This document shows, in pieces, positions 1 through 11,838 of a stretch of 11,838 bases of DNA. How positions within the stretch are numbered: the stretch's first letter is position 1; each line of letters begins with the position of its first letter. The notes under the pieces were generated by a model. It saw only the letters and a list, made by a program, of their open reading frames with translations. It was not told the origin of the DNA and made no database searches. The translations under genes and the position numbers were made by a program. The stretch comes from an uncultured Verrucomicrobiae bacterium. Its GTDB lineage: Bacteria > Chlamydiota > Chlamydiia > Chlamydiales > Rhabdochlamydiaceae. The stretch is from the NCBI GenBank assembly GCA_963818965.1, contig CAWFUG010000006.1, positions 1 through 11,838 on the forward strand, read 5' to 3'.

Positions 1-175
1 CGAGAAGATCTTTTCTAAAGAGCTCAAAAATACGAAGCTCTCTTACATGCTCAAGACGCTTCTCTTTTTTTGTAGAAGCCAAAGAGTGCTGAAGGTGGTC
101 CAACGCGCTTACCAATTCTTAAGGAACAGAAAGAGAAACACTCAGAAATACCCAAAACAAGGAATCGACACATGA
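1..175 (+). CDS. 3' end of an upstream CDS (partial); basic C-terminal tail, product unknown (possibly another glycosyltransferase)
   Basis: The frame starting at base 2 is open (EKIFSKELKNTKLSYMLKTLLFFCRSQRVLKVVQRAYQFLRNRKRNTQKYPKQGIDT*). It ends at TGA 173-175, overlapping the next ATG (172-174) as ATGA, typical of translational coupling. Not in the ORF track. Confidence 0.65.
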   Translation, partial: EKIFSKELKNTKLSYMLKTLLFFCRSQRVLKVVQRAYQFLRNRKRNTQKYPKQGIDT

Positions 176-1305
176 AATCCAACAAACACAAGCTCACGAC
201 TCTCTATTTACTCTTATGCATTATTTTTTTAGGAAACAGTTTATATGCAGACTATTTCCATCTCCCTCAATCTTTTATAGCCATTCCCGATGTGACGACC
301 GGAACACAGGATGACGATATTGAGGTAATAAAACGCGCAGTCGCGGCATACAGAAACACCATTGAAGAGCAGAAATATTGCGACAACTCTAGTCTATGGA
401 GTCAATTTTTCTATCGCCAACAAGCAGATATTCACAAGATGTTTATGAGGGCAGAAATTAAACAAATAGCAAACGTTCTGCGAAATCCAGCTCTTTCAGA
501 TTTATTCTATGGATTCGAAAACCTAGCGAAAACTATTTTAAGAAATCATGGCCGTGACCCCAATTTTGCTCCGGGTGCTATGGACTGCCTCATCCGTTTT
601 GCTGCAGCAATAGGCGCCATCCGCTTGGAAAATCCAGAATCCTATATCCCCACCCAGTGGACAGCAGATGAAATCCTTCTCAAAATTGGCCAAAAATTGA
701 ATGGGGCTGTCCCATTTCCTAATCCTTTTCCTTTGGAACACGGTCTAAAAACATCTTATGGAGTTGTGTCCTATCGCGCCTGTCAAGCCCTCTACCAAGC
801 ATGGAGAATCAAACAACTCGTTAAAGACATTCCAAACCCACGCATTCTTGAAATCGGAGCAGGGTTGGGACGAACCGCTTTTTATGCAAGGTGGCTTGGG
901 ATTAAGGACTATACCATTGTGGATCTACCGATGGCAGCGATCTCTTCGAGCTATTTTTTAGGACGCACCCTTGGAAAAGACCACGTATTATTTGCTGGAG
1001 AAAATGCACAAGACGCTGATCAACGTGTCAAATGGATCACTCCCTCAGAATTCTTAGCGAGCACTCGTTCCTATGATTTAATCATTAATGCAGATGGACT
1101 TACTGAAATGGATCAAAATGTGGCACTCGCCTATTTTCAAAAAATTGAAAAAAACACAACATTATTTCTTTCGATAAATCATGAAAATAACCCATTCACT
1201 GTACGAGAATTATTAGATATCAGCACTTACGTAGAAGAGGGATCTCGTATGCCCTATTGGATGCGTAACGGATATGTAGAAGAACTCGTGCGTTTCAAAC
1301 GATAA
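172..1305 (+). CDS. Putative sugar O-methyltransferase (class I SAM-dependent, TIGR04371-like) with N-terminal signal peptide
   Basis: 377 aa. Motif I ILEIGAGLGRTA, then YTIVDLP and YDLIINADGLTEM, the pattern of the putative sugar O-methyltransferase family. N-terminus MKSNKHKLTTLYLLLCIIFLGNSLYA|D is signal-peptide-like. AAGGA lies upstream. Confidence 0.75.
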   Translation: MKSNKHKLTTLYLLLCIIFLGNSLYADYFHLPQSFIAIPDVTTGTQDDDIEVIKRAVAAYRNTIEEQKYCDNSSLWSQFFYRQQADIHKMFMRAEIKQIANVLRNPALSDLFYGFENLAKTILRNHGRDPNFAPGAMDCLIRFAAAIGAIRLENPESYIPTQWTADEILLKIGQKLNGAVPFPNPFPLEHGLKTSYGVVSYRACQALYQAWRIKQLVKDIPNPRILEIGAGLGRTAFYARWLGIKDYTIVDLPMAAISSSYFLGRTLGKDHVLFAGENAQDADQRVKWITPSEFLASTRSYDLIINADGLTEMDQNVALAYFQKIEKNTTLFLSINHENNPFTVRELLDISTYVEEGSRMPYWMRNGYVEELVRFKR

Positions 1306-1382
1306 GATACGAACAACACAGAGCCCAGAGGACATAGAGAGAAAAACAAAAAAATGCTCCTTTTTGTCCTATAACGCCTTCA

Positions 1383-2267
1383 CTACTGGGCTCTCATTTC
1401 TTTTATCCGATTCACAAACCGGAGCATCTCGAGATCTTCTTCTTCGCTCAGAGAGTCCTTATAAGCGATGTAAGCCCCCTCTTCAAGACCCCACAAAAGA
1501 CATCTCGGCAGCTTTACCTCTCGAAAAAACTTCTCATCCTTGGTCCAGTAATGGTGTAAACGGATCTTATCCACGCATAAATTCGGCCCCTTGCAATCAT
1601 TGGGAGAATAGGCTTGAAAATTGGTATTCACGTGCCAATGATCTTTCGTATAATTACAAAAATGGGGATGGGTGCAGTCTCTCACATGCTCCGGTTGAAC
1701 AATCGATTTAAATAAAAAATTTCTGCAATGATCTAAGGGAGCTCTCTTGTTTAGTTTCTCAATCATGAGCTCGTCGGCACCCACCGATTCAACACCTGAG
1801 GTACCGAAGTGGACCCAGTTAATCCCGAGGCCAGAGACATACCAAAACTCCCTTTCCAATAGCTCAGGAAGAGAATCTCCCGTCATTGGAACGATGAACT
1901 CGTCGACGTCGATGAGTGCCACCCATTTAGCTCTCCCTCTTATCCGATTGAGACAATGGTTGTAAGCACTCGTTTGCACGGTAAAAGAGTAATACGCATA
2001 ATCGTTTGCTTGGAAAGAAGGCCATGGAATGAGATGGACCCATCCTTTTTGAATATAGGGCTCTAAAACTTCGCCGTAGTTATCTTCGCTGTCGTTATTG
2101 TACAACCAGAATTCTTCGACCCCCACCAATCGATGATAATCGATCCATTCAGCCAAAAAGCGCGCTTCATTTTTAAAGATAGCACAAACAGCAAGTGTCT
2201 TTTCATAGCAAAAGCCAGAAACGTGCAAAAACGCGATCGACAGGAATAAACAGTAATACCTTGTCAT
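1383..2267 (-). CDS. Glycosyltransferase family 92 (DUF23)-like protein, copy A
   Basis: 294 aa. LAVCAIFKNEARFLAEWIDYHRLVGVEEFWLYNNDSEDN signature, DxD motif (IDVDEF), KSIV and RLHHY motifs, hydrophobic N-terminal leader. GAGGAG RBS upstream on the minus strand. Confidence 0.85.
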   Translation of the reverse strand: MTRYYCLFLSIAFLHVSGFCYEKTLAVCAIFKNEARFLAEWIDYHRLVGVEEFWLYNNDSEDNYGEVLEPYIQKGWVHLIPWPSFQANDYAYYSFTVQTSAYNHCLNRIRGRAKWVALIDVDEFIVPMTGDSLPELLEREFWYVSGLGINWVHFGTSGVESVGADELMIEKLNKRAPLDHCRNFLFKSIVQPEHVRDCTHPHFCNYTKDHWHVNTNFQAYSPNDCKGPNLCVDKIRLHHYWTKDEKFFREVKLPRCLLWGLEEGAYIAYKDSLSEEEDLEMLRFVNRIKEMRAQ

Positions 2268-2283
2268 CCACTCTTCTCCTCTG

Positions 2284-3171
2284 TCATTGAGCTCTTATTT
2301 CTTTTAGTCGATCCACAAATCGGAGCATCTCGAGATCTTCCTCTTCATTCATAGAGTCTTTCTGGGAAATCCAATGCTCTTTTGAAGCGCCCCACAGGAG
2401 ACATCTCGGTAGCTTTACTTCTCGAAAAAACTGTTCATCTTTGGTCCAATAATGATGTAATCGGATTTTATCCAAACACAGATGCAATTTTCCACCATCC
2501 TCAGGACGATATGCTTCCAAATTTGTATTCACGTCCCAATGACCTTTGATATAATTACAAAGATGGGGATTAGGGCAGCGTTTCACATGCTCAGGCTGGA
2601 CAATCGATTTAAATATAAAATTTCTCTCATAGTTTAATGGAGCTCTCTTGTTCAGTTTTTCAATCATAAGCTCATCGGCGCCAATCGACTCAACACCTGA
2701 AGTACCGAAGTGAACCCAGTTAATCTTGAGACCAGAGACATACCAAAATTCTCTTTCCAATAACTCGGGAAGAGAATCTCCCGTCATCGGAACGATGAAC
2801 TCATCGATATCGATCAGTGCGACCCATTTAATTCTTCTTCTTATGCGATTAAGACAATGATTGTAAGCACTCGTTTGCACGGTAAAAGAGTAATAAGAAT
2901 GATCGTTCTCGTGAAAAGAAGGCCATTGAATGAGATGGACCCATCCTTTTTTAATATAGGGCTCTAAAACTTCGCCGTAGTTATCTTCGCTGTCGTTATT
3001 GTATAACCAAAATTCTTCGACCCCCACCAATCGATGGTAATCGATCCATTCAGACAGAAAGCGCGCTTCATTTTTAAAGATAGCACAAATAGCAAGTGTC
3101 TTTTCATAGCAAAAGCCAGAAACGTGCAAAAACACGATCGACAAAAACAACCCATAACAACTTCTCATCAT
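2284..3171 (-). CDS. Glycosyltransferase family 92 (DUF23)-like protein, copy B
   Basis: 295 aa. Same motifs as copy A (IDIDEF). GAGAGG RBS before tandem ATG ATG, so the start could be 3171 or 3168. Confidence 0.85.
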   Translation of the reverse strand: MMRSCYGLFLSIVFLHVSGFCYEKTLAICAIFKNEARFLSEWIDYHRLVGVEEFWLYNNDSEDNYGEVLEPYIKKGWVHLIQWPSFHENDHSYYSFTVQTSAYNHCLNRIRRRIKWVALIDIDEFIVPMTGDSLPELLEREFWYVSGLKINWVHFGTSGVESIGADELMIEKLNKRAPLNYERNFIFKSIVQPEHVKRCPNPHLCNYIKGHWDVNTNLEAYRPEDGGKLHLCLDKIRLHHYWTKDEQFFREVKLPRCLLWGASKEHWISQKDSMNEEEDLEMLRFVDRLKEIRAQ

Positions 3172-3184
3172 TTCCTCTCGTATG

Positions 3185-4072
3185 TCACTGAGCTCTCATT
3201 TCTTTTAGTCGATCCACAAATCGGAGCATCTCGAGATCCTCCTCTTCATTCAGAGAGTCTTTATAGGAAATGTAGCCCTCGCTTGAAGAGCCCCACAGGT
3301 TACCTCTTGGTAGTTTTACCTCTCGAAAGAACTTTTCATCTTTGGCCCAATAATGGTGTAATCGGATCTTATCTAAACACAGATTCGGCACCTTACAATC
3401 ATCAGGAGGATAAGCTTCCAAATTTGTATTCACGTGCCAATGCCCTTCGGTATAATTACAAAAATGGGGATGAGTACAGTTTTTTACATGCTCAGGCTGG
3501 ACAATCGATTTAGATAGAAGATTTCTCTCGTGATCCAACGGAGCCCTCTTTTTCAGTTTTTCAATCATAAGCTCATCGAGACCAATCGACTCCACACCTG
3601 ACGTGCCGAAGAAAATCCAGTTAATCCCGAGACCCGAGACAAACCAAAATTCTCTTTCCAATAGCTCAGGGAGAGAATCCTCCGTCATCGGAACGATGAA
3701 CTCGTCGACGTCGATGAGCGCCACCCATTTAGTTCGTCCCCTTATGCGATTGATACAATGGTTGTAAGCACCTGTTTGTACAGTAAAAGAGTAATACCAA
3801 TAATCGTTCTCTTGGGAAGAAGGCCATTGAATCAGGTGGACCCATCCCTTTTGAATATAGGGCTTTAAAACCTCCCCGTAGTTATCTTCGCTATCGTTAT
3901 TGTATAACCAAAATTCTTCGACTCCCACCAATCGATGGTAATCGATCCATTCGGCCAGAAAGCGCGCTTCATTTTTAAAAATGGCACAAACAGCGAGTGT
4001 CTTTTCATAGCAAAAGCCAGAAACGTGTAAAAATACAATCGACAGGCATAACCAGTAACAACCTCTTCTCAC
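3185..4072 (-). CDS. Glycosyltransferase family 92 (DUF23)-like protein, copy C
   Basis: 295 aa. Same motifs (IDVDEF). GTG start overlaps the upstream stop as GTGA (4069-4072), with GAGGAG just upstream. Confidence 0.85.
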   Translation of the reverse strand: MRRGCYWLCLSIVFLHVSGFCYEKTLAVCAIFKNEARFLAEWIDYHRLVGVEEFWLYNNDSEDNYGEVLKPYIQKGWVHLIQWPSSQENDYWYYSFTVQTGAYNHCINRIRGRTKWVALIDVDEFIVPMTEDSLPELLEREFWFVSGLGINWIFFGTSGVESIGLDELMIEKLKKRAPLDHERNLLSKSIVQPEHVKNCTHPHFCNYTEGHWHVNTNLEAYPPDDCKVPNLCLDKIRLHHYWAKDEKFFREVKLPRGNLWGSSSEGYISYKDSLNEEEDLEMLRFVDRLKEMRAQ

Positions 4073-4689
4073 ATCTCCTCATAGGCCCAAAAATTGCCAA
4101 AATAATAAATTTTTTTTCCTAAAACTTCCGCGCCCCGAAAAACTGCTTCTCGTACGGAAGCCCATGACCAATCATCTCCACAGAGCATTCCGCCACTCTT
4201 AAGATGGGGGTACCATGCTAGAATGTCTGCCAAAACACTTTCCGTATCATGCGCCGCATCGAGATAAATGAGATCTGCTTCGACATGCAGCGCTTTAGAA
4301 GCTTCGATAGAATCCATCCTGACGGGAATGATTCTATCCGTGAGACCTGCATGTTTTACATTAGAAAGAAACTGCTGATAGAGGAAAGAAAGCCTTGAGT
4401 CTTGCCCATGCACCGATTCATTCGAAGAGCCAAGCCAAGTATCCACTGCATATAACTTGCCCCCATCATCAAGTAACTCTGCCATGAATCGGGTAGAAGC
4501 CCCGAGCCAAGAACCCACTTCAATAATGACTTTTGGATGCATCTGTTCTATCTGCTTTTGCAATGGTTCAGCGTTAAAAAACCATCCATGTCCATCAAAT
4601 GGCAGATCGTGAATGGAGGCATAAGGCTCTGGCATTTCTGCACATAAGGGGAGGCAAAACAAACTCACTATTCTCAGGATTCTTTTCAT
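4069..4689 (-). CDS. Class I SAM-dependent methyltransferase (Methyltransf_24-like) with N-terminal signal peptide
   Basis: 206 aa. IIEVGSWLGAST, YAVDTW, DLIYLDAAH and LKSGGMLCGDDW motifs. Leader MKRILRIVSLFCLPLCA|E. ATGA overlap with the upstream GT2 stop (4686-4689). Confidence 0.85.
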   Translation of the reverse strand: MKRILRIVSLFCLPLCAEMPEPYASIHDLPFDGHGWFFNAEPLQKQIEQMHPKVIIEVGSWLGASTRFMAELLDDGGKLYAVDTWLGSSNESVHGQDSRLSFLYQQFLSNVKHAGLTDRIIPVRMDSIEASKALHVEADLIYLDAAHDTESVLADILAWYPHLKSGGMLCGDDWSWASVREAVFRGAEVLGKKIYYFGNFWAYEEM

Positions 4690-5744
4690 GATTTTGGCTC
4701 CAAAAGCTGTGGTAAATTGTACTGTTTAAATTTTTCTGACGTTCCATCTGGAAGAATCTTTTCTTTCAAAAAAAGCTGCTTGGCCCTTCGCATCAAAGAA
4801 ATAAGGGGGCCTCTCATAAAGGGAAAAATGAAACACACCCCAGCAAAAAGGAAGTAACCACACATTTTTCTACTTAAAAACCCATTGCGAAACGCTTTAA
4901 ACCAAATCGTTACCGCCTCTCTCAAATGTCCTGATGGAATGAAGTTACTCAGACAGGTATGGACAATTCTATAATAATCTTTCCTCAAGAGTCGCTTTAA
5001 TGCAGATTTTAAAGAGGGATCTAGCCAAGAAAATTCCTCAACTCGATGAATCAGCCTCAGCGTCGACTCCATGGAAGCTGAAAAAGTCAGAGAGCCTGAA
5101 AAAGAATCGGAATGAAAAACGAAATAGCCACACGGTTTCTTGGAAATGACAATCGGATACTGCCCAGCCAACTGGATTAAAAAGTCGCAATCCCAAGCGA
5201 CTTGATTTGCAAAGTCGATTTTCACCCGAGAAACGCACTCCGTTCGATACATCACTGTTGTAGGAACAGGGTAGTTACCGATCATCTCAAGGAGTGCCTC
5301 TTTGGAAGCAAACAAACCTTCTCTCGACCAACTTTCCAAAGGCGCACGAAAAACTTGCCCTTGAGCTGTGATCATAAGCGAGGATCCTGCAAAGAAGGCG
5401 CTCTCGGGGTACTCTTGAAAACTTTTTAGAGCCGTTTCACAAAAATGGGGCAGTAACATATCGTCATCAGAGAGAACAGAAAAATATTCCGTTCCGATTT
5501 GAGAAAACCCAAATTCATAATTCCCAAGCATTCCGATATTTTCTGCATGGCAAAAATACTGAATGCGGGGATCTTCCTTTGCAAATCGCGCTACGATCTC
5601 AGCAGTCTCATCCTGAGACGCATTATCACAAATGAGTACACACAACTCTTTGCATGTTTGGCTGAGCACGCTTTCGATGGCCCTTTTCAATAGCTGAGGC
5701 CGCCGGTAAGTGGGAATGAACACTGTAATTAAAGGAAAAGACAT
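4686..5744 (-). CDS. Glycosyltransferase family 2 protein
   Basis: ITVFIPTYRR, CDNASQDET, ENIG...N and SDDD GT-A motifs. Start revised from 5783 to ATG 5744 (MSFPLITV...) because GAAAGG lies just upstream and 5783 falls inside the predicted promoter spacer. No signal peptide. Confidence 0.88.
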   Translation of the reverse strand: MSFPLITVFIPTYRRPQLLKRAIESVLSQTCKELCVLICDNASQDETAEIVARFAKEDPRIQYFCHAENIGMLGNYEFGFSQIGTEYFSVLSDDDMLLPHFCETALKSFQEYPESAFFAGSSLMITAQGQVFRAPLESWSREGLFASKEALLEMIGNYPVPTTVMYRTECVSRVKIDFANQVAWDCDFLIQLAGQYPIVISKKPCGYFVFHSDSFSGSLTFSASMESTLRLIHRVEEFSWLDPSLKSALKRLLRKDYYRIVHTCLSNFIPSGHLREAVTIWFKAFRNGFLSRKMCGYFLFAGVCFIFPFMRGPLISLMRRAKQLFLKEKILPDGTSEKFKQYNLPQLLEPKS

Positions 5745-5763
5745 GTGACCTTTCAGTAGATCC

Positions 5764-5793
5764 TCGAAAAAATACAGCCTCATCCACTATATT
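5764..5793 (+). promoter_or_regulatory. Weak candidate promoter for the rightward GT2, overlapping the leftward promoter
   Basis: TCGAAA (5764-5769), 18 nt, TATATT (5788-5793). Confidence 0.3.
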
Positions 5794-5798
5794 GTCAA
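5769..5798 (-). promoter_or_regulatory. Sigma70/sigma66-type promoter for the leftward GT2-MTase-GT92x3 operon
   Basis: Minus strand reads TTGACA (5798-5793), 18 nt, TATTTT (5774-5769), about 25 nt upstream of ATG 5744. Confidence 0.6.
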
Positions 5799-5823
5799 AT
5801 TGTGTAACATGCGGAGCCTTCCT

Positions 5824-6843
5824 ATGACGCCAGAAATTACGACGATCATTACGACTTATCGACGTCCCCATCTCTTGAAAAAAGCCATCCTCAGCGCTCT
5901 GAATCAAACATTTTCAAACATTCAAGTATGCGTCTATGACAACGCTTCAAGAGATGGGACGGAGCAAATCGTCAGGGAGTTGATGCAGTGCGATCCCAGA
6001 ATCAAGTATCACTGTCATACAGAAAATATCGGCATGATGGCCAACTACCAATACGCCCTTTCTCAAATTAGTACGCCCTATTTTTCACTTCTCTCTGATG
6101 ATGATCAATTGCTGCCGGAATTCTATAAAATTGCCCTACAAAGTTTTCAACAATACCCCGAGATCGCTTTTTGCGCATGCGGTGTCAGAGCAATTGATGA
6201 AAAGGAGTACTTTGTCTCCAGTCCCATCAGCATGTGGAATAGAACGGGTTATTTTTCTGCCCTGGAAGGATTCGATGAAATGATCACCAAACCGCTTTTG
6301 CCAGTCGGAGTACTTTTCCAAACTAACCAAGTCAAAGAAATCCAACCCGATTTGAGTCATGAAATTCAAATCCGATGGGACACAGACTACCTCCTGCAAA
6401 TCATCGAACGACACCCCTATTTCATCAATGGGGAAATCTGTGCCTTGTTTTTGGCACACAGCAATGGATTTTCCACGGGAAATTATAGACAAATGCATTT
6501 ATGCGCTAAAAAATTTGAAAAGCATGTGCATGCCACAAAGCAAATGATCCATCGCATAGAGAAGAGTAAGAAAATCCCTTCCACTCTCAAAGAAAAACCG
6601 ATAAAAGAGCTCCATCAACAGCTAAACATCGATTTTCGCAACATGATTGCAAATTACTTCGAAAAAAAACTCACCAAAGCCTCTAAGGAACTATTCCGTC
6701 TTTATGTACATACCTACGGATTTGGCGTCCTAGAGCCGCAAAACTTCAAGGGCTTTCTAAAGTCCTGGCTCATCAATTATCTGCCCCAGGCCCTTCCCCT
6801 TCTCCTCAAAGCTCGAAATTTGGCCCTCAAGAAAAAGCAATAG
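5824..6843 (+). CDS. Glycosyltransferase family 2 protein (paralog of the divergent GT2)
   Basis: ITTIITTYRRP, YDNASRDGT, ENIGMMAN and SDDD motifs. Start revised from 5800 to ATG 5824 (MTPEIT...), with GGAG at 5813-5816. No signal peptide. Confidence 0.88.
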   Translation: MTPEITTIITTYRRPHLLKKAILSALNQTFSNIQVCVYDNASRDGTEQIVRELMQCDPRIKYHCHTENIGMMANYQYALSQISTPYFSLLSDDDQLLPEFYKIALQSFQQYPEIAFCACGVRAIDEKEYFVSSPISMWNRTGYFSALEGFDEMITKPLLPVGVLFQTNQVKEIQPDLSHEIQIRWDTDYLLQIIERHPYFINGEICALFLAHSNGFSTGNYRQMHLCAKKFEKHVHATKQMIHRIEKSKKIPSTLKEKPIKELHQQLNIDFRNMIANYFEKKLTKASKELFRLYVHTYGFGVLEPQNFKGFLKSWLINYLPQALPLLLKARNLALKKKQ

Positions 6844-6855
6844 GGAAATAAAGAA

Positions 6856-6885
6856 TTGCATACCTTTCACCAAAGTCTGTATAGT
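6856..6885 (+). promoter_or_regulatory. Sigma70/sigma66-type promoter for 6969-8694
   Basis: TTGCAT (6856-6861), 18 nt, TATAGT (6880-6885). Strong RBS AAGGAGAGG at 6954-6962. Confidence 0.5.
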
Positions 6886-6968
6886 CAAAACGTTTGTATA
6901 TAGTGCTTCCACCTCAATCGTAACCGCAAGCAAACCGATTAAAAGTTGGATATAAGGAGAGGTATTGA

Positions 6969-7988
6969 ATGAACCACAAAAACCGACTCTTTGTCTTTGC
7001 TTCTGTGCTGTTTTGTTTACTCTCCGGTTTCTTGGTCGCTAAAAATGACGAAGACATTGTGAAAAGGCATGGATTATTAGTTGGTAAATACCTCCATCCA
7101 GCCAACCAAAAAGTCATTCTCGAAGATTGGCACCATCCCACGATTCGCGATTATTGGAAAATACAACATTATCTGACGCAAGCTCCTCGTCCTGAATTGC
7201 AGTATCTAAATTTTCAAGGAAGCCCATTCAGAGCCGACAGAATGCGCAATTTTCGTCTTATTACTAATGAAGTACAGCCTAAATTTGAGATTATTTCGCT
7301 CAACGAAGACCCCTCTGAGAGAAAAAACTGCATTGTAACCTACGTTTCCATCAACGATAACTACATTAGAAAACAACAGGAACTCATCCAAAGGCTACGG
7401 TCCGTTGGATTTAATGGGCATGTCATTCAAAGAATCGGTGGATGGCCCGCTACTGAAATGGGTTCATTAGAATTTTTCGATATTCCTTACGCCTTTAAAA
7501 TTTGCGCATTATTGGAGGCGAGAAATTTGGGTTATCAAAACTGTTTATGGCTTGATTCTTATATGGTGCCACTGACCGATCTGAGTGACCTATTTAATCA
7601 TATAACGGAACATGGAATATTTTTGTTTTACAGCCACATTGGCGGTGGAATAGGCCACATTCAACCCTTTGCAGCTGAGTCCTTCGGCACATCGGTTTCC
7701 TGTTTTGAGCAAGGGGCAGGTATCACTGCCTGCATTGTCGGGGTCAGTTCGTTCCACGAAAGAGGTATCCAGTTCCTGGATTCTTGGCACGCCATGTTGG
7801 CTACTCAAAGGCTGGGATTCCTGTCATTCATTCCTGAACAAGCAGCCCTATGTGTGCTTGCTGATCGTTTAGGGCTCGGCCCGTACGCAGGCAATCCAAA
7901 ATTTGTAGCCTCTGGGTGCGACCCCGATGTGATTACATGTGATGCAAATATATGCTGGGACCGTTTCACTCAAACCTATGGTCCCTAA
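6969..7988 (+). CDS. Hypothetical exported or membrane-anchored protein, probable GT-A-fold nucleotide-diphospho-sugar transferase
   Basis: 339 aa. Hydrophobic N-terminus (RLFVFASVLFCLLSGFLVA). PYAFKICALLEA..GY..CLWLDS and a later EQAAL resemble the K...WxD and DQ/EQ motifs of GT-A transferases. The CDS is solid; the function is tentative. Confidence 0.55.
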   Translation: MNHKNRLFVFASVLFCLLSGFLVAKNDEDIVKRHGLLVGKYLHPANQKVILEDWHHPTIRDYWKIQHYLTQAPRPELQYLNFQGSPFRADRMRNFRLITNEVQPKFEIISLNEDPSERKNCIVTYVSINDNYIRKQQELIQRLRSVGFNGHVIQRIGGWPATEMGSLEFFDIPYAFKICALLEARNLGYQNCLWLDSYMVPLTDLSDLFNHITEHGIFLFYSHIGGGIGHIQPFAAESFGTSVSCFEQGAGITACIVGVSSFHERGIQFLDSWHAMLATQRLGFLSFIPEQAALCVLADRLGLGPYAGNPKFVASGCDPDVITCDANICWDRFTQTYGP

Positions 7989-8019
7989 TCGTCTTAACTT
8001 TTAAACTTATGAGGCTCCC

Positions 8020-8694
8020 ATGATCCGACAAATAGTGCGCTGCCTTTCCCTTGGACTATCTATTTTTTACATAGGCTCCGTCCTTGCGGATATACCCTAC
8101 CTCAGCAAAGCAGAGCGCTATTTTTCCGACGTTTACGATCATGCTGCGTGGGGCCACAATGAAATGGGAGAAGGAAGCTCTGGTCCTGGATCCCTAGTGC
8201 ATGAAGCCATCCCCTTTATTAATTATATCCAAAATTTCTTAGAGACTCATGAAATCGATTCCGTTGTTGATGTCGGATGTGGAGATTGGGTACTTGCCCG
8301 TGAAATTAATTGGGGCAAAAGAAATTACTTGGGGATCGATGTCGTGGAAAGTGTAATAGAAAAAAATCAGGTAAATTATAGCTCTGACAATATCCATTTT
8401 TTAAAATTTGATGCAGGAATAGATTCAATTTCCCCGGGAGATCTACTCATTTGTAAAGATGTCTTCATTCACTTGCCCTACTCTGAAATCAATAACATTT
8501 TAAAAGAATCCAACAAATTCAAATATTGCATTTTCGTTAATGACGTAGAAGGATCTGGCGTGAATATAGATCTACCTAACTATGGCTTTCGAAGTGTTTA
8601 TTTAACAACCTTCCCCTTTAACCTCATCCCGACGCAAGTAACCCATTATATTTCTCACGGCAGAACAAAAGAAATTGTGCTTATTAAACACTAG
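8020..8694 (+). CDS. Class I SAM-dependent methyltransferase with N-terminal signal peptide
   Basis: 224 aa. FSDVY...WG...SGPGS, SVVDVGCGDW, YLGIDVV and DLLICKDVFIHL motifs, a type often found in glycan clusters. Leader ends ...GSVLA|D. GAGG RBS upstream. Confidence 0.85.
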   Translation: MIRQIVRCLSLGLSIFYIGSVLADIPYLSKAERYFSDVYDHAAWGHNEMGEGSSGPGSLVHEAIPFINYIQNFLETHEIDSVVDVGCGDWVLAREINWGKRNYLGIDVVESVIEKNQVNYSSDNIHFLKFDAGIDSISPGDLLICKDVFIHLPYSEINNILKESNKFKYCIFVNDVEGSGVNIDLPNYGFRSVYLTTFPFNLIPTQVTHYISHGRTKEIVLIKH

Positions 8695-8700
8695 CTGCGG

Positions 8701-8813
8701 TATGAACCTATCCTAATAAAAAGTTTCAGTCGATTTTCGGGTTCTTTTGAATCGAAAATCGGTCAAAATAATCCCGAAAATCGACTGAAACTTTTTATTA
8801 GGACAGATTCGTA
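8701..8813. repeat. 113-bp palindromic element (long inverted repeat, MITE-like)
   Basis: Perfect 31-bp inverted repeat, 8711-8741 (TCCTAATAAAAAGTTTCAGTCGATTTTCGGG) versus 8773-8803. It extends imperfectly outward (7/10) to 8701 and 8813 and inward to a 3-nt loop at 8756-8758. Both ends are TA. Confidence 0.9.
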
Positions 8814-8943
8814 GTATTATTTTAAATAACCGTGATGCGAGTTATTTGCAGATATGCCCGTGTACCAGTCTGGGTTTACCCATGTACAATTATGAGCATT
8901 TCCTCTAGTGTAAAGAGCTACTCATCGCTTTTATTGAGGTCCT

Positions 8944-10560
8944 ATGGTGCTTTTACACATTACACGCCTGCTGTGTGTGGGGTGCTGTTCGCTTTTCTTG
9001 TTTACTTCGTGCCACAACGACAAAACCCCGAAAATGGGAGAGTGCTCCGCAGAGAGACTCGTTCGGCTCAACTTAAGACACGAGCCACTGACGATGGATC
9101 CCCGAAAAGGGGGAGATGTCATCTCTTCCCAAATGCACTTTTTACTATTCGAAGGGCTCGTAAAACTCAATCCCGATCGCTCGATTGCGCCGGCACTTGC
9201 AGAATCGTTCACAGTGTCTGAAGATGGATTGATCTATACATTTAGATTGAGAGACACTTGTTGGTCTGATGGCTCGCCCGTTCTCACTTCCGATTTCGAA
9301 GCTGCCTGGAAGATGATTCTATCACCGAGCTTCCCCTCCCCTAATGCGCATCTGCTCTATCCGATTAAAAATGCAGAAAGAGCGAAAAAGGGAGAGGTTG
9401 AGTTAGGCGAGATCGGCATCGCATCCGAAGGAGAAAAGACCCTTCTCGTCACTCTTGAAAAGCCGACTCCCTACTTTTTAGATCTGATCTCTTTTTGCGT
9501 CTTTTTCCCCGTCTCTTCGCAAAATGATCAAAATCATCCGGAATGGGCCAGGGATCCAGGAGAGAACTTCTTGAGCAATGGCCCCTTTTTATTGCAGGAG
9601 TGGAAACACCATGACGAAATTCTCCTCGTAAAAAATCCGCTTTATTGGGATCACACACGAGTCCTTCCTGATAAAATTCACTTCAGTATGGTCGATAATG
9701 AAGCGACCGTCCTTCAAATGTTTGAAAATGGAAGTCTCGATATGATCGGGGATCCCCTCTCTTCCATCTCCACCGATGCCTTAAGTACGTTGAAACAAAA
9801 GGGTCTGATCCAAAAATACTCGATCCCTGCGACGACCATGGTCGCATTCAATGCCGCATCCCCATTCTTTTCCAATCCCAAGATACGCAAAGCCTTCTCT
9901 TATGCGATCCATCGAGAATCTATCGCAAATATCACCCAGATGGATGAGTGTATTGCGACAAGTGCCGTCCCTCCCATTTTGAAAAAGGGAATAGGACGCC
10001 TCCAATTTTTTCAAGACGGTAACGATCATTTGGCGCAAAAACTCTTTGAAGAAGGACTGCGAGAGAGTGGCCTTTCCCGGGAAGCTTTTTCGAACTTGAG
10101 TTATTATTACGCGACGACAGAACTGAACCACAAAATTGCGCAGGCACTCCAGCAACAATGGAGAGACACCTTGGGAGTGGAGATTAAACTAGAGAACTTT
10201 GAACACAAAATTTTACTCGCTAAGTTCTCCCAACGAGATTACCACATCGGCCAGGTCCGCTGGATGTCTCAATACAACGACACGATGAGCATGTTAGAGC
10301 GGTTTAAATCCAAGGATAATCCGATCAATTTTTCCAATTGGGAACACCCTCTCTTCGCACAACTTTTAGAAGCCTCTTTCTATGAAACAGGAGCGCAGCG
10401 GTTCCAGACTTTAGAAAGGGCAGAAGAGATTCTAATGGAAGAAATGCCCTTTAGCCCCATTTATCATTGGGACATGACCTACATGGTACAACCTGGATGC
10501 AAAAACCTCGGAATCTCTTCGATCGGGGAGCTTTGCTTTGAGGACATGGATCATTCATGA
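8944..10560 (+). CDS. oppA: Oligopeptide ABC transporter substrate-binding lipoprotein (SBP family 5)
   Basis: 538 aa. Lipobox-like LFTSC, EPLTMDPR, LFEGLV, ALAESFTVSEDGLIYTFRLRDTCWSDGSP, SNGPF and AEEILMEEMPFSPIY. GAGGT RBS at 8936-8940. Confidence 0.92.
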   Translation: MVLLHITRLLCVGCCSLFLFTSCHNDKTPKMGECSAERLVRLNLRHEPLTMDPRKGGDVISSQMHFLLFEGLVKLNPDRSIAPALAESFTVSEDGLIYTFRLRDTCWSDGSPVLTSDFEAAWKMILSPSFPSPNAHLLYPIKNAERAKKGEVELGEIGIASEGEKTLLVTLEKPTPYFLDLISFCVFFPVSSQNDQNHPEWARDPGENFLSNGPFLLQEWKHHDEILLVKNPLYWDHTRVLPDKIHFSMVDNEATVLQMFENGSLDMIGDPLSSISTDALSTLKQKGLIQKYSIPATTMVAFNAASPFFSNPKIRKAFSYAIHRESIANITQMDECIATSAVPPILKKGIGRLQFFQDGNDHLAQKLFEEGLRESGLSREAFSNLSYYYATTELNHKIAQALQQQWRDTLGVEIKLENFEHKILLAKFSQRDYHIGQVRWMSQYNDTMSMLERFKSKDNPINFSNWEHPLFAQLLEASFYETGAQRFQTLERAEEILMEEMPFSPIYHWDMTYMVQPGCKNLGISSIGELCFEDMDHS

Positions 10561-10992
10561 GGTCTTCTTTTCCGCAAAGCCTTCATTGCGCAATAAGACC
10601 TTCGCTTCGACGACTTTGGGTTTCAAATACTCGCGCAGAGCGCGATCGAACTCTTTAGAAGAACACTGCTCTCCACAAGTGAATAGATCGACGAAACAGG
10701 CCCGGTGTTCGGGATAAGTATGGATACTCGCATGACTCTCAGAAAGCAGAAAAACCATCGTCAAGCCATCGGGAGGAAAGACCCATTCTGAACGCTTGAG
10801 AATCGTCGCTCCACTCTTTTCTACGGCGATTTCCATCGCAGCAGTCAGGGCTTCGATATCTGAGAGCGCTTTTTCATCGCATTCGCAATAGCTCGCCAAA
10901 AAATGCGTCCCCATAAATGCGTAAGAGTCTACTTCATTTGCACATCCCATGCTAAAAACAGAAAAAAAGAATAAACAAAGAACACGTCTCAT
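10555..10992 (-). CDS. speD: S-adenosylmethionine decarboxylase proenzyme family (pyruvoyl-dependent, class 1B) with N-terminal signal or lipoprotein-like leader
   Basis: GTHF...SGATIL...LLSE|SHASIHTYPE...VDLFTCG contains the self-cleavage site and the catalytic His and Cys. Start placed at ATG 10992, 5 nt after TAAGG; the track's GTG 10998 overlaps that RBS. Confidence 0.88.
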   Translation of the reverse strand: MRRVLCLFFFSVFSMGCANEVDSYAFMGTHFLASYCECDEKALSDIEALTAAMEIAVEKSGATILKRSEWVFPPDGLTMVFLLSESHASIHTYPEHRACFVDLFTCGEQCSSKEFDRALREYLKPKVVEAKVLLRNEGFAEKKTS

Positions 10993-11020
10993 AAACACCT
11001 TAAGATATACAGCACGCGCT

Positions 11021-11049
11021 ATTGTATAAACTTACATCGAAAAATGCAA
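11021..11049 (-). promoter_or_regulatory. Sigma70/sigma66-type promoter for speD
   Basis: Minus strand reads TTGCAT (11049-11044), 17 nt, TACAAT (11026-11021), ending 28 nt upstream of ATG 10992. Confidence 0.6.
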
Positions 11050-11131
11050 TCCCTTTCTCTTTCAAAAAATGTCATCAAGAGTCATAATTAAAACATACCC
11101 GGGTGCACTGAGGTATCAAGAGGCATGATAG

Positions 11132-11838
11132 ATGATTCGTATTCTTTTTTCTTTAGGTACTTTGGCGGCTGCCTGCTATGGCCTTTTGAGGCTCAGTTCT
11201 TCCCATCCAGAGATCAGGGGAAGGATCGACCAGTTCCTCCATACGGGAACGTTTCACACGCTTGAGATCCGCTACACAGCAGATCAAATCATGCAGTCTC
11301 ATCGTAAAGACCTACTTAAGAGCAATCGGCATCAATTTCTAGAACCCTCTCTCAAGTTTTACCCTTACCTGCTTCTCGAAGTGAAGTACCCCCTTTCTCC
11401 TTACAAGACAAAAGAGAGCGTCATGCTGTGGGATCTGACAGATGGAGAGATGGTGATCAGCACGAATCGCTGGGAAAAAACCCATGGATTTAGCGACTGC
11501 ATCAACGCGCATGTCGATCTGAATGAATTTAAGATCATCCGAGCTCTTGCAGAAAAAGGGGGCTTTACCGATCGAGAGAGCCTTTCAAGAGAGGTCCCTG
11601 TCAACCCCAAACTCCTAGATAGCTGGCTCGAGAGCTGCCGTCGGAAAAAATTGATCCTCTCAATGGACAATCACTACCGACTCCATCTAGAAAATCCCCG
11701 CTTAAAAATCACCCCTTGTACAAAGCTCGATGAGCGCCTCGTGACGAAGAATTACCACCGCGCAGAGTGTCTTCCGAAGCGATTCTCTTTTGACCAAATC
11801 GAAAGGGTGACTCAAGCTGCCTTTGGAACTGAGTTCGA
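11132..11838 (+). CDS. Hypothetical membrane-anchored protein (5' part; runs off the window), resembling a conserved Chlamydiota protein
   Basis: Not in the ORF track because it has no stop in the window. Open from ATG 11132 to the edge: MIRILFSLGTLAAACYGLLRLSSSHPEIRGRIDQFLHTGTFHTLEIRYTADQIMQSHRKDLL...FYPYLLLEVKY...LWDLTDGEMV...WEKTHGF...YRLHLENP... AAGAGG RBS at 11118-11123 and a candidate -10 CATAAT at 11083-11088. The chlamydial resemblance is from recall only. Confidence 0.85.
   Translation, partial: MIRILFSLGTLAAACYGLLRLSSSHPEIRGRIDQFLHTGTFHTLEIRYTADQIMQSHRKDLLKSNRHQFLEPSLKFYPYLLLEVKYPLSPYKTKESVMLWDLTDGEMVISTNRWEKTHGFSDCINAHVDLNEFKIIRALAEKGGFTDRESLSREVPVNPKLLDSWLESCRRKKLILSMDNHYRLHLENPRLKITPCTKLDERLVTKNYHRAECLPKRFSFDQIERVTQAAFGTEF

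Follow-up and report, generated by a model that had tools for sequence, protein, structure and literature searches.

In the standard view of bacterial glycan chemistry, S-adenosylmethionine (SAM), ATP, and nucleotide sugars are restricted to the cytoplasm, and lipid-linked donors serve the glycan chemistry that takes place outside. Bacterial systems for glycan tailoring in the periplasm, such as ArnT and the O-antigen ligase, are polytopic GT-C proteins using polyprenyl-phosphate sugars, and the glycosyltransferases of the eukaryotic Golgi and endoplasmic reticulum (ER) are type II signal-anchor proteins with a stem region. For the glycogen in the inclusion lumen of Chlamydia trachomatis, Gehre et al. 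(2016, PMC4829429) report that the enzymes are type 3-secreted and that a host transporter, SLC35D2, delivers UDP-glucose. Here we analyze an 11,838-base stretch of DNA (contig CAWFUG010000006.1 of assembly GCA_963818965.1, at its full length; hereafter the window) from an uncultured member of the Rhabdochlamydiaceae, in which four putative glycosyltransferases, three methyltransferases, and a SpeD-type decarboxylase are all predicted to begin with Sec-type leaders. These predicted leaders exist at a rate enriched over the rest of the genome, are selective within the locus, bear the marks of translation, and are conserved in kind among relatives, and the catalytic and cofactor motifs of the enzymes behind them appear intact.

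On the form and distribution of the leaders, it is likely that these proteins cross the inner membrane. It is moderately probable that the three glycosyltransferases of family GT92, the GT8-like protein, the methyltransferases, and SpeD are exported through Sec and act outside the cytoplasm with SAM and nucleotide sugars of the host. The window is best explained as an accessory low-GC island for glycan tailoring, present in an environmental chlamydia as two sister copies of which this is one.

Predicted export signals of the enzymes in the window

The window is the whole of contig C6 in a genome bin (G000) of 2.24 Mb on 12 contigs that is 87.85% complete, and the named database relatives of its genes are in line with an environmental chlamydia. 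It is filled by 12 non-nested open reading frames (ORFs), of which 11 are complete and the last is cut by the contig end, and the ORF list together with Pfam and NCBIfam scans returned the frames and domains as an earlier note on this DNA had given them. The eight enzymes in question, with the two family GT2 glycosyltransferases of the same locus, are as follows (a slash marks the predicted cleavage site).

172..1305, + strand: NanM-like sugar O-methyltransferase (O-MT); TIGR04371 62.3 bits, cut-off 44; signal peptide residues 1-26, ...NSLYA/D
1383..2267, - strand: GT92 glycosyltransferase copy a (GT92a); PF01697 103 bits, cut-off 23, domain from residue 25; signal peptide MTRYYCLFLSIAFLHVSGFC
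2284..3171, - strand: GT92 copy b (GT92b); PF01697 98.9 bits; leader classed as signal peptidase I type (SPI)
3185..4072, - strand: GT92 copy c (GT92c); PF01697 103.2 bits; GTG start; signal peptide MRRGCYWLCLSIVFLHVSGFC
4069..4689, - strand: Methyltransf_24 / CmcI-like O-methyltransferase (MT24); PF13578 74.2 bits; short signal peptide MKRILRIVSLFCLPLCA/E
4686..5783, - strand: GT2, leaderless; PF00535 81.6 bits; C-terminal hydrophobic segment at residues 312-330
5800..6843, + strand: GT2, leaderless; PF00535 83.4 bits
6969..7988, + strand: ORF6969, putative GT-A fold (GT8-like); no Pfam or NCBIfam match; signal peptide ...SGFLVA/K
8020..8694, + strand: MT8020, probable SAM methyltransferase; motif I VVDVGCGDW; signal peptide ...GSVLA/D
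10555..10998, - strand: SpeD-type pyruvoyl decarboxylase (S-adenosylmethionine decarboxylase, AdoMetDC, family); TIGR03330 95 bits, cut-off 75.65; lipoprotein signal MFMRRVLCLFFFSVFSMGC

As the earlier note had claimed, all eight enzymes were found to begin with a Sec-type leader, made up of an n-region of charge +1 to +3, an uncharged core of 11-19 residues, and either small residues at positions -3/-1 or a lipobox. The selectivity that it had described within the locus was likewise observed, the leader being absent from both GT2s by the classifier described below and by reading of the N-termini. These two genes are placed divergently, and their best NCBIfam neighbours are PglI, TuaG, and WcaA.

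Exported proteins were called with a simple rule-based classifier, in which the lipobox rule is a PROSITE-like pattern, over crude genome-wide gene calls (1883 genes covering 87.7% of bases). The comparison of signal rates between the window and the genome supported the enrichment: 9 of the 11 complete window genes were classed as exported vs 354 of 1872 (18.9%) elsewhere (binomial P 1.2e-5). Among 1767 sliding windows of 11 genes, the sole one with 9 exported genes was this window, the next best having 7. In the control sets, the classifier called 215 of 6226 pseudo-N-termini at internal Met (3.5%), 109 of 1883 reversed proteins (5.8%), and 119 of 1883 proteins with the first 40 residues shuffled (6.3%). 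Seven window proteins fell into the SPI class, and a lipobox was assigned to SpeD (FSMGC) and to the two remaining genes of the window, which carry leaders too.

8944..10560, + strand: OppA-type substrate-binding lipoprotein; SBP_bac_5 221 bits; lipobox LFTSC; an ordinary exported neighbour
11132..11836, + strand: ORF11132, no family match, cut by the contig end; lipobox-type leader ...LAAAC, classed as lipoprotein

Across the genome, none of the six called Glycos_transf_1 genes (PF00534, GT-B fold) that pass the Pfam cut-off alone has a leader. In a seventh, whose weak match reaches the cut-off only when neighbouring hits are counted with it, a leader can be read from an internal start. Clear leaders were observed in 3 of about 10 intact GT2 genes, and the Methyltransf_24 genes have leaders in three of seven cases by the classifier and in two more by eye. 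Three GT2-family genes in a row at C8:240422-243248 all encode a clear signal peptide immediately before the GT2 domain, which would make this another exported glycosyltransferase cluster.

The lipoprotein signal peptidase LspA (Peptidase_A8) is present at C2:20947-21396. Export through the twin-arginine translocation (Tat) system was considered and rejected; the search of the 87.85%-complete genome found no TatC, and an RR pair occurs only in SpeD and GT92c.

Translation of the leaders

Purine-rich motifs resembling Shine-Dalgarno (SD) sequences lie directly upstream of the leader starts of GT92a, GT92b, GT92c, ORF6969, and others, with GGAG before the ATG of GT92a and GAGGAG before the GTG of GT92c. 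The next in-frame start is at codon 47 in GT92c, inside the domain, and at codon 40 in O-MT, and the ATG of MT24 overlaps the stop codon of the upstream GT2.

An artefact of choosing the longest ORF, with the true starts lying downstream of the leaders, would have its best candidates in SpeD, where the internal Met29 adjoins the start of the TIGR03330 match (residue 28), and in MT24 with its internal Met19. Among the 29 chlamydial SpeD orthologs that were fetched first, however, Met29 is not a conserved residue, and by eye each of them has a variable hydrophobic leader before a conserved mature start; leaders are also kept in kind across five families. The earlier note had named downstream starts as a way in which its proposal could be wrong; with SD-like motifs before the leader codons, several genes without an alternative start, and Met29 unconserved, the true starts appear to be those of the leaders, and we regard an artefact of this kind as extremely improbable.

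Conservation of the leaders among relatives

Orthologs were scored with the same classifier, each candidate start upstream of the domain being tried, and the calls were distributed as follows.

GT92, best 120 of 247 database relatives: 79 SPI, 8 lipoprotein, 5 anchor, 14 hydrophobic without a charged n-region, 14 none (some fragments)
MT24, 31 ortholog ORFs: 22 SPI, and 2 by a relaxed rule (one false by eye)
ORF6969 family, 33 sequences: 18 SPI, 2 lipoprotein, 4 anchor, 5 hydrophobic by the relaxed rule
SpeD, 36 chlamydial orthologs: 28 SPI, 2 lipoprotein
MT8020, 25 ortholog ORFs: 17 SPI, 3 lipoprotein
NanM-like O-MT, best 120 database relatives: 44 SPI, 1 lipoprotein, 2 anchor, 10 hydrophobic without charge, 63 none

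Across Chlamydiota orthologs, the leaders proved to be conserved in kind and not in sequence, with a variable leader followed by conserved residues right after the predicted cleavage site. SPI sites and classic lipoboxes alternate among orthologs, lipobox variants being observed in GT92, MT8020, SpeD, ORF6969, and the spermidine synthase SpeE. The GT92 loci were taken from species-representative genomes (75 fetched, with an ORF containing both required motifs in 69). A leader was found in 40 of 46 Chlamydiota-labelled GT92 relatives, with about four more by eye, and one of the 'anchor' calls is false.

Among the 10 GT92 proteins scored from other phyla, which form a small sample, five score as leaderless (two cyanobacteria, Selenomonadales, Vulcanimicrobiota, and one Verrucomicrobia). 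The 'anchor' call in a third cyanobacterial protein falls on the first beta-strand, and the protein looks leaderless by eye. Clear leaders outside Chlamydiota were observed in one Pseudomonadota bin and one Verrucomicrobia, and the calls in a second Verrucomicrobia and in a Rickettsiaceae bin, 88 and 132 residues upstream of the domain, are doubtful. No GT92 was found in 14 well-known control genomes. The NanM-like O-MT is rare, being found in 2 of the 150 genomes of the phylum sample. In none of the 27 genomes of family f4 (listed members about 1.0-1.2 Mb) was a Methyltransf_24, ORF6969, MT8020, or SpeD protein found.

In three genomes (G036, G126, and G059), the MT24 orthologs have about 290 extra N-terminal residues, which by eye resemble other glycosyltransferase domains, and the leader precedes the whole protein. 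Conserved Cys pairs were considered as a sign of an oxidising compartment and proved uninformative, since the GT92 alignment has no invariant Cys and the ORF6969 family has only one.

The form of the leaders supports cleavable Sec or lipoprotein signals as the predicted type, not long anchors. Positive charge precedes the core, and the net charge after it is zero or negative in most window leaders; in O-MT an n-region of +3 is followed by a core of 19 residues and a charge of -2 over the next 15 residues, and in MT24 an n-region of +3 by a core of 11 residues and a charge of -4 over the next 15. When a transmembrane threshold of 19 residues is applied, the GT92 and MT24 cores fail and those of O-MT, ORF6969, and MT8020 pass.

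Uncleaved anchors, holding the catalytic domains on the cytoplasmic face beside the GT2s where they would use ordinary cytoplasmic cofactors, would agree with the three cores that pass this threshold, with GT92 flanking charges that barely discriminate, and with the general knowledge that SAM and nucleotide sugars are cytoplasmic in bacteria. Such anchors nevertheless seem improbable. In O-MT, MT24, MT8020, and SpeD the charge is positive before the core and acidic after it, the MT24 core is just 11 residues long, and the GT92 catalytic domain starts 2-5 residues past the leader core without a linker. The interchange of SPI sites with classic lipoboxes in orthologs is the pattern of exported proteins, and is hard to square with an anchor facing the cytoplasm.

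Catalytic motifs and the fold of ORF6969

The three window copies of GT92 stand in tandem, copies a and b being 82% identical, and a fourth copy of the genome is found at C9:37230-37898. Across 24 aligned sequences, the DxD motif (D120 and D122, in DVDEF) and 16 further columns are invariant. The paralogs are under purifying selection, with ratios of nonsynonymous to synonymous substitution rates (dN/dS) of 0.11-0.22 (0.11-0.19 for copy a vs its paralogs). In the methyltransferases, what we take to be SAM motif I can be discerned in all three translations. The TIGR04371 match of O-MT spans only positions 131-266 of the 273 of the model, and MT8020 reaches 23.1 bits with Methyltransf_25, below the Pfam cut-off of 27, the paralog inside a fusion on contig C12 reaching 39.5 bits. 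The TIGR03330 match of SpeD covers residues 28-137, and a Ser that is presumably the self-cleavage site is present.

Up to an E value of 0.01, no family in Pfam or NCBIfam matches ORF6969. Its first neighbours in the ESM Atlas are unnamed clusters from Chlamydiota, after which come clusters of GT34, Nucleotid_trans, and DUF1647. An AlphaFold2 model built from an alignment of 17 relatives (predicted local distance difference test score, pLDDT, 88.9) gave LARGE1, MNT2, XXYLT1, glycogenin, and UGGT as top Foldseek matches in the PDB, at E values of 1.8e-5 to 1e-3 and a probability of about 1.0, yet with template modelling (TM) scores of only 0.35-0.42. These matches are GT-A enzymes from the lumen of the ER and Golgi, together with their kin. 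On the basis of the predicted structure, ORF6969 is read as a divergent GT-A glycosyltransferase. Its family is multi-copy, with five matches in this genome (including three paralogs on C12 and one on C2) and seven in each of two other genomes; some genomes have a fusion in which a GT2-like domain, itself preceded by a leader, stands before it.

If the proteins were exported but non-enzymatic, having been turned from enzyme folds into glycan-binding or structural proteins of the envelope, the problem of cofactors outside the cytoplasm would vanish, and the sub-threshold match of MT8020 and the lack of a full DxD in ORF6969 would fit. The invariant DxD and 16 further columns of GT92 and the low dN/dS of its paralogs speak against such a loss of activity, as do the presumed SAM motif I in the three methyltransferases, the presumed self-cleavage Ser of SpeD, and the apparent co-export by leader of partner enzymes (SpeD with SpeE, and the enzymes of 3'-phosphoadenosine 5'-phosphosulfate, PAPS, with a sulfotransferase). 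We consider a non-enzymatic role very improbable.

SpeD and SpeE

The genome has one spermidine synthase gene, speE (C9:396944-397840), and its product has the signal peptide MRTLLSTCLLCLSITCHA/QE from the second in-frame Met. Across the phylum sample, SpeE and SpeD were found in the same families. When 24 genomes with both genes were read, leaders were observed on both proteins in 18, on neither in 5, and discordantly by the classifier in one (G098), in which a weaker hydrophobic leader can be seen by eye. The genomes with leaderless SpeD and SpeE (G082, G131, G086, G090, and G079) belong to at least two separate families, f1 (genus g3) and f7.

Since the two leaders are kept or lost together and the two enzymes are linked by one metabolite, it can be argued that the leader decides their shared compartment. 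The SpeE partner and the co-variation also favour SAM as the candidate substrate of SpeD; neofunctionalised homologs of SpeD are reported to be arginine or ornithine decarboxylases (PMC10407285).

The sister island and the sulfation genes

The glycan part of the window (1-8900) has a G+C content of 42.1% vs 47.5% for the genome, and only 1.5% of 9-kb genome windows are at or below 42.5%. The end of the window (8925-11837, OppA-SpeD-ORF11132) is 98-99.8% identical to C12:10090-11709 and 15037-16309, with 98% identity in the OppA stretch (C12:10090-11709), and a second copy of SpeD (C12:15027-15470) and a full copy of ORF11132 (C12:15604-16440) follow there. The start region of C12 is low in G+C like the window, and contains the three ORF6969 paralogs and GT2 fragments, a leader-bearing fusion of Methyltransf_24 and Methyltransf_25 domains (MT24+MT25) whose leader nearly equals that of MT8020, and a leader-bearing NanM-like methyltransferase with a pseudogene of one. 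MT8020 is fused behind a Methyltransf_24 domain in C12 and in two other genomes (G111 and G088).

Between OppA and SpeD, C12 has a 3.3-kb insert with genes for ATP sulfurylase, adenosine 5'-phosphosulfate (APS) kinase, and a sulfotransferase (11791-14759). The ATP sulfurylase has a signal peptide, the APS-kinase frame (12956-13405) overlaps its 3' end, and the Sulfotransfer_2 gene has a leader from an internal Met. The ATP sulfurylase/APS kinase copy of this genome appears to be split by a frameshift. Leaders were found in 10 of 11 ATP-sulfurylase orthologs of other chlamydiae, most of which are about 560-585 aa long, the length expected of a fusion with APS kinase as judged on length alone.

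Genome G111 of family f7 was observed to hold the best orthologs of three proteins: ORF6969 at 46% identity, the MT24+MT25 fusion at 55%, and the NanM-like O-MT at 50% (C1:50474-51481). The first two are neighbours there (C1:267892-270291), as on C12, which suggests that the module is shared or was transferred. Next to the sister island on its downstream side, at C12 21276-24553, the N-termini by eye resemble heptosyltransferases of the lipopolysaccharide (LPS) core; if this reading holds, the sister island would adjoin LPS core genes.

Cofactor supply

Neither this genome nor 17 of the 22 genomes of its family (all at least 94% complete) yielded a hit to the SAM synthetase gene metK, which was found in 41 of the 150 genomes of the phylum sample. 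Three full-length nucleotide transporters of the TLC family are present in the genome, as is the secretin GspD. Most chlamydiae are reported to be without metK, and a SAM transporter with import of SAM is described in C. trachomatis (Binet et al. 2011, PMC3104491). With no metK found and nucleotide transporters present, host SAM and nucleotides must cross the periplasm, and the main chemical objection to exported SAM- and nucleotide-dependent enzymes is thereby removed. A supply of host-derived cofactors to exported enzymes is thus plausible.

A strict link between the leader and loss of metK was considered and rejected. In family f6, 16 of 17 genomes have metK, relatives of MT24 occur in 9 of 17, and a leader was seen in three of the four f6 orthologs whose N-termini were read. 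G080 combines metK with leader-bearing SpeD and SpeE, and G082 and G131 are without metK yet leaderless. The three leaderless g3 genomes of the SpeD/SpeE comparison do have metK.

After Sec export, the proteins could be released through type II secretion or in vesicles, and could serve as effectors that remodel host glycans at sites rich in SAM, nucleotide sugars, and PAPS, namely the cytosol or the secretory pathway of the host. The presence of GspD is in line with such a route, and so is the nature of the families: GT92, GT8-like, and Sulfotransfer_2 proteins are typical of the eukaryotic ER and Golgi, and the families are multi-copy, patchy, and located in a low-GC island. Moreover, signal-peptide and lipobox proteins of amoeba symbionts are treated as delivered effectors in one report (PMC3417536). 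On the other hand, the lipobox variants would tether orthologs to bacterial membranes, the SpeD/SpeE pair is of a housekeeping type and shares the trait with co-variation, a route across the vacuole membrane is not evident, and the leaderless GT2s in the cluster suggest a bacterial glycan pathway. Release as effectors is therefore judged unlikely, and action of the exported enzymes in the periplasm, on the surface, or in the vacuole lumen remains the preferred reading.

Other features of the window

The spacer that separates the genes for MT8020 and OppA contains a 113-base palindrome (8701-8813) with 55-nt arms that are 84% complementary and a 3-nt loop, and near-identical pieces of 45-66 bases were found on contigs C1 (four places), C3, C8, and C12. 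A 61-base repeat at 6885-6945 matches C9:76794-76854. Among sequencing runs, no RNA data set was listed for this DNA, and the single DNA data set listed has 0.05 of the sampled words in common with it. Two + strand ORFs, 1364-1711 (115 aa) and 3034-3513 (159 aa), were rejected as genes, being similar antisense frames of the paralogous GT92 3' ends.

Proposed mechanism

From the leaders and the motifs behind them, we infer export, cleavage, the compartment, the donors, and the acceptor as follows. The four GT-A-fold glycosyltransferases (three GT92 and one GT8-like), the three methyltransferases, and SpeD would be made as precursors with cleavable Sec signals, and signals of the SPI or lipoprotein type would have the enzymes moved across the inner membrane. 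There they would be cleaved or lipidated, and catalysis would take place in the periplasm, on the surface, or in the vacuole (inclusion) lumen continuous with that surface, while the leaderless GT2s would remain on the cytoplasmic side. The donors would be host SAM and nucleotide sugars, with ATP for the PAPS enzymes of the sister island. The acceptor would be a surface or lumenal glycan, which may be galactosylated, O-methylated, and possibly sulfated.

Several observations weigh against this proposal. The classifier is home-made, and is neither SignalP nor validated. Related genomes are not independent, so that the ortholog counts overstate the number of evolutionary events. Leaderless Chlamydiota orthologs exist (7 of 31 for MT24, 5 of 36 for SpeD, and about 9 by eye for GT92), and the enzymes can therefore also work in the cytoplasm. 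In GT92a and GT92b the n-region has a charge of just +1 and the residues past the core are also +1, and the positive-inside argument is weak for these two because the charge is the same on both sides of the core. In the DxD region of ORF6969, D196 (in LWLDS) is the only Asp kept in all 17 aligned sequences. That SAM, nucleotide sugars, and ATP occur outside the cytoplasm is assumed, and SAM auxotrophy does not explain the trait, since leader-bearing forms occur in lineages with metK (f6 and G080). No flippase, ligase, priming transferase, or donor transporter was found among the window genes, and no support was obtained for the division of labour suggested in the earlier note, in which cytoplasmic GT2s may build a core glycan that, once flipped, would be extended outside. 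Finally, the correspondence between C6 and the start of C12 may reflect a segmental duplication or second locus, or strain variants in one bin.

More widely, environmental chlamydiae, and perhaps other protist-parasitic bacteria, may have shifted entire pathways that depend on cofactors out of the cytoplasm, to the periplasm or the lumen of the vacuole, an idea that we put forward tentatively. These would comprise Golgi-type glycan extension, O-methylation, PAPS synthesis with sulfation, and SpeD/SpeE, and host SAM, ATP, and nucleotide sugars would be used there before uptake, with the Sec leader as a pathway-wide sorting switch and the envelope space as a Golgi-like compartment. The conserved and selective Sec tags on Leloir glycosyltransferases, SAM methyltransferases, PAPS enzymes, and SpeD/SpeE argue against the view that such cofactors are confined to the cytoplasm for energy-parasitic chlamydiae, whose periplasm or vacuole lumen may be a cofactor-rich workspace. 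If true, this would have consequences for what the chlamydial surface and vacuole matrix are made of, and for the exchange of genes of Golgi-type enzyme families between host and symbiont.

Comparison with known systems

A full-text search, with subscription journals and supplements lying outside it, found no literature describing signal-peptide-tagged GT92, methyltransferases, SpeD, or SpeE in chlamydiae. The predicted enzymes share families or folds with Leloir enzymes of the eukaryotic Golgi and ER lumen, namely GALT-1 and GALS1, which we take to be galactosyltransferases of GT92, the GT8-type LARGE1 and XXYLT1, MNT2 of GT71, and Sulfotransfer_2 proteins. In both cases an N-terminal hydrophobic segment sets the domain on the non-cytosolic side, as proposed here, and the donors must be imported. 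Unlike type II Golgi enzymes, the proteins of this locus have a short core with the catalytic domain following at once and alternate with lipobox forms among orthologs, which fits cleaved bacterial signals.

As in the ArnT and O-antigen ligase systems, tailoring is proposed to occur on the periplasmic side after cytoplasmic assembly; the difference is that the enzymes here are predicted to be soluble GT-A and Rossmann-fold proteins of the nucleotide-sugar and SAM type. With the canonical SpeD/SpeE pathway (class 1b AdoMetDC, TIGR03330), the locus has in common a match above the cut-off, the presumed self-cleavage Ser, and a SpeE partner in the genome, and it differs in the export signals that both partners have in 18 of 24 chlamydial genomes.

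The closest published precedent is the glycogen system of C. trachomatis. It has in common with the present proposal a chlamydial nucleotide-sugar glycosyltransferase outside the cytoplasm, an activated sugar from the host, and a metabolically active vacuole, which for this locus are predicted from sequence. In that system GlgA and its partners are type 3-secreted in Chlamydiaceae, whereas the leaders here are hydrophobic Sec or lipoprotein signals, not type 3, and the enzymes are GT92, GT8-like, SAM methyltransferases, and SpeD of environmental chlamydiae. If the proposal is true, it would extend this single precedent to a general strategy.

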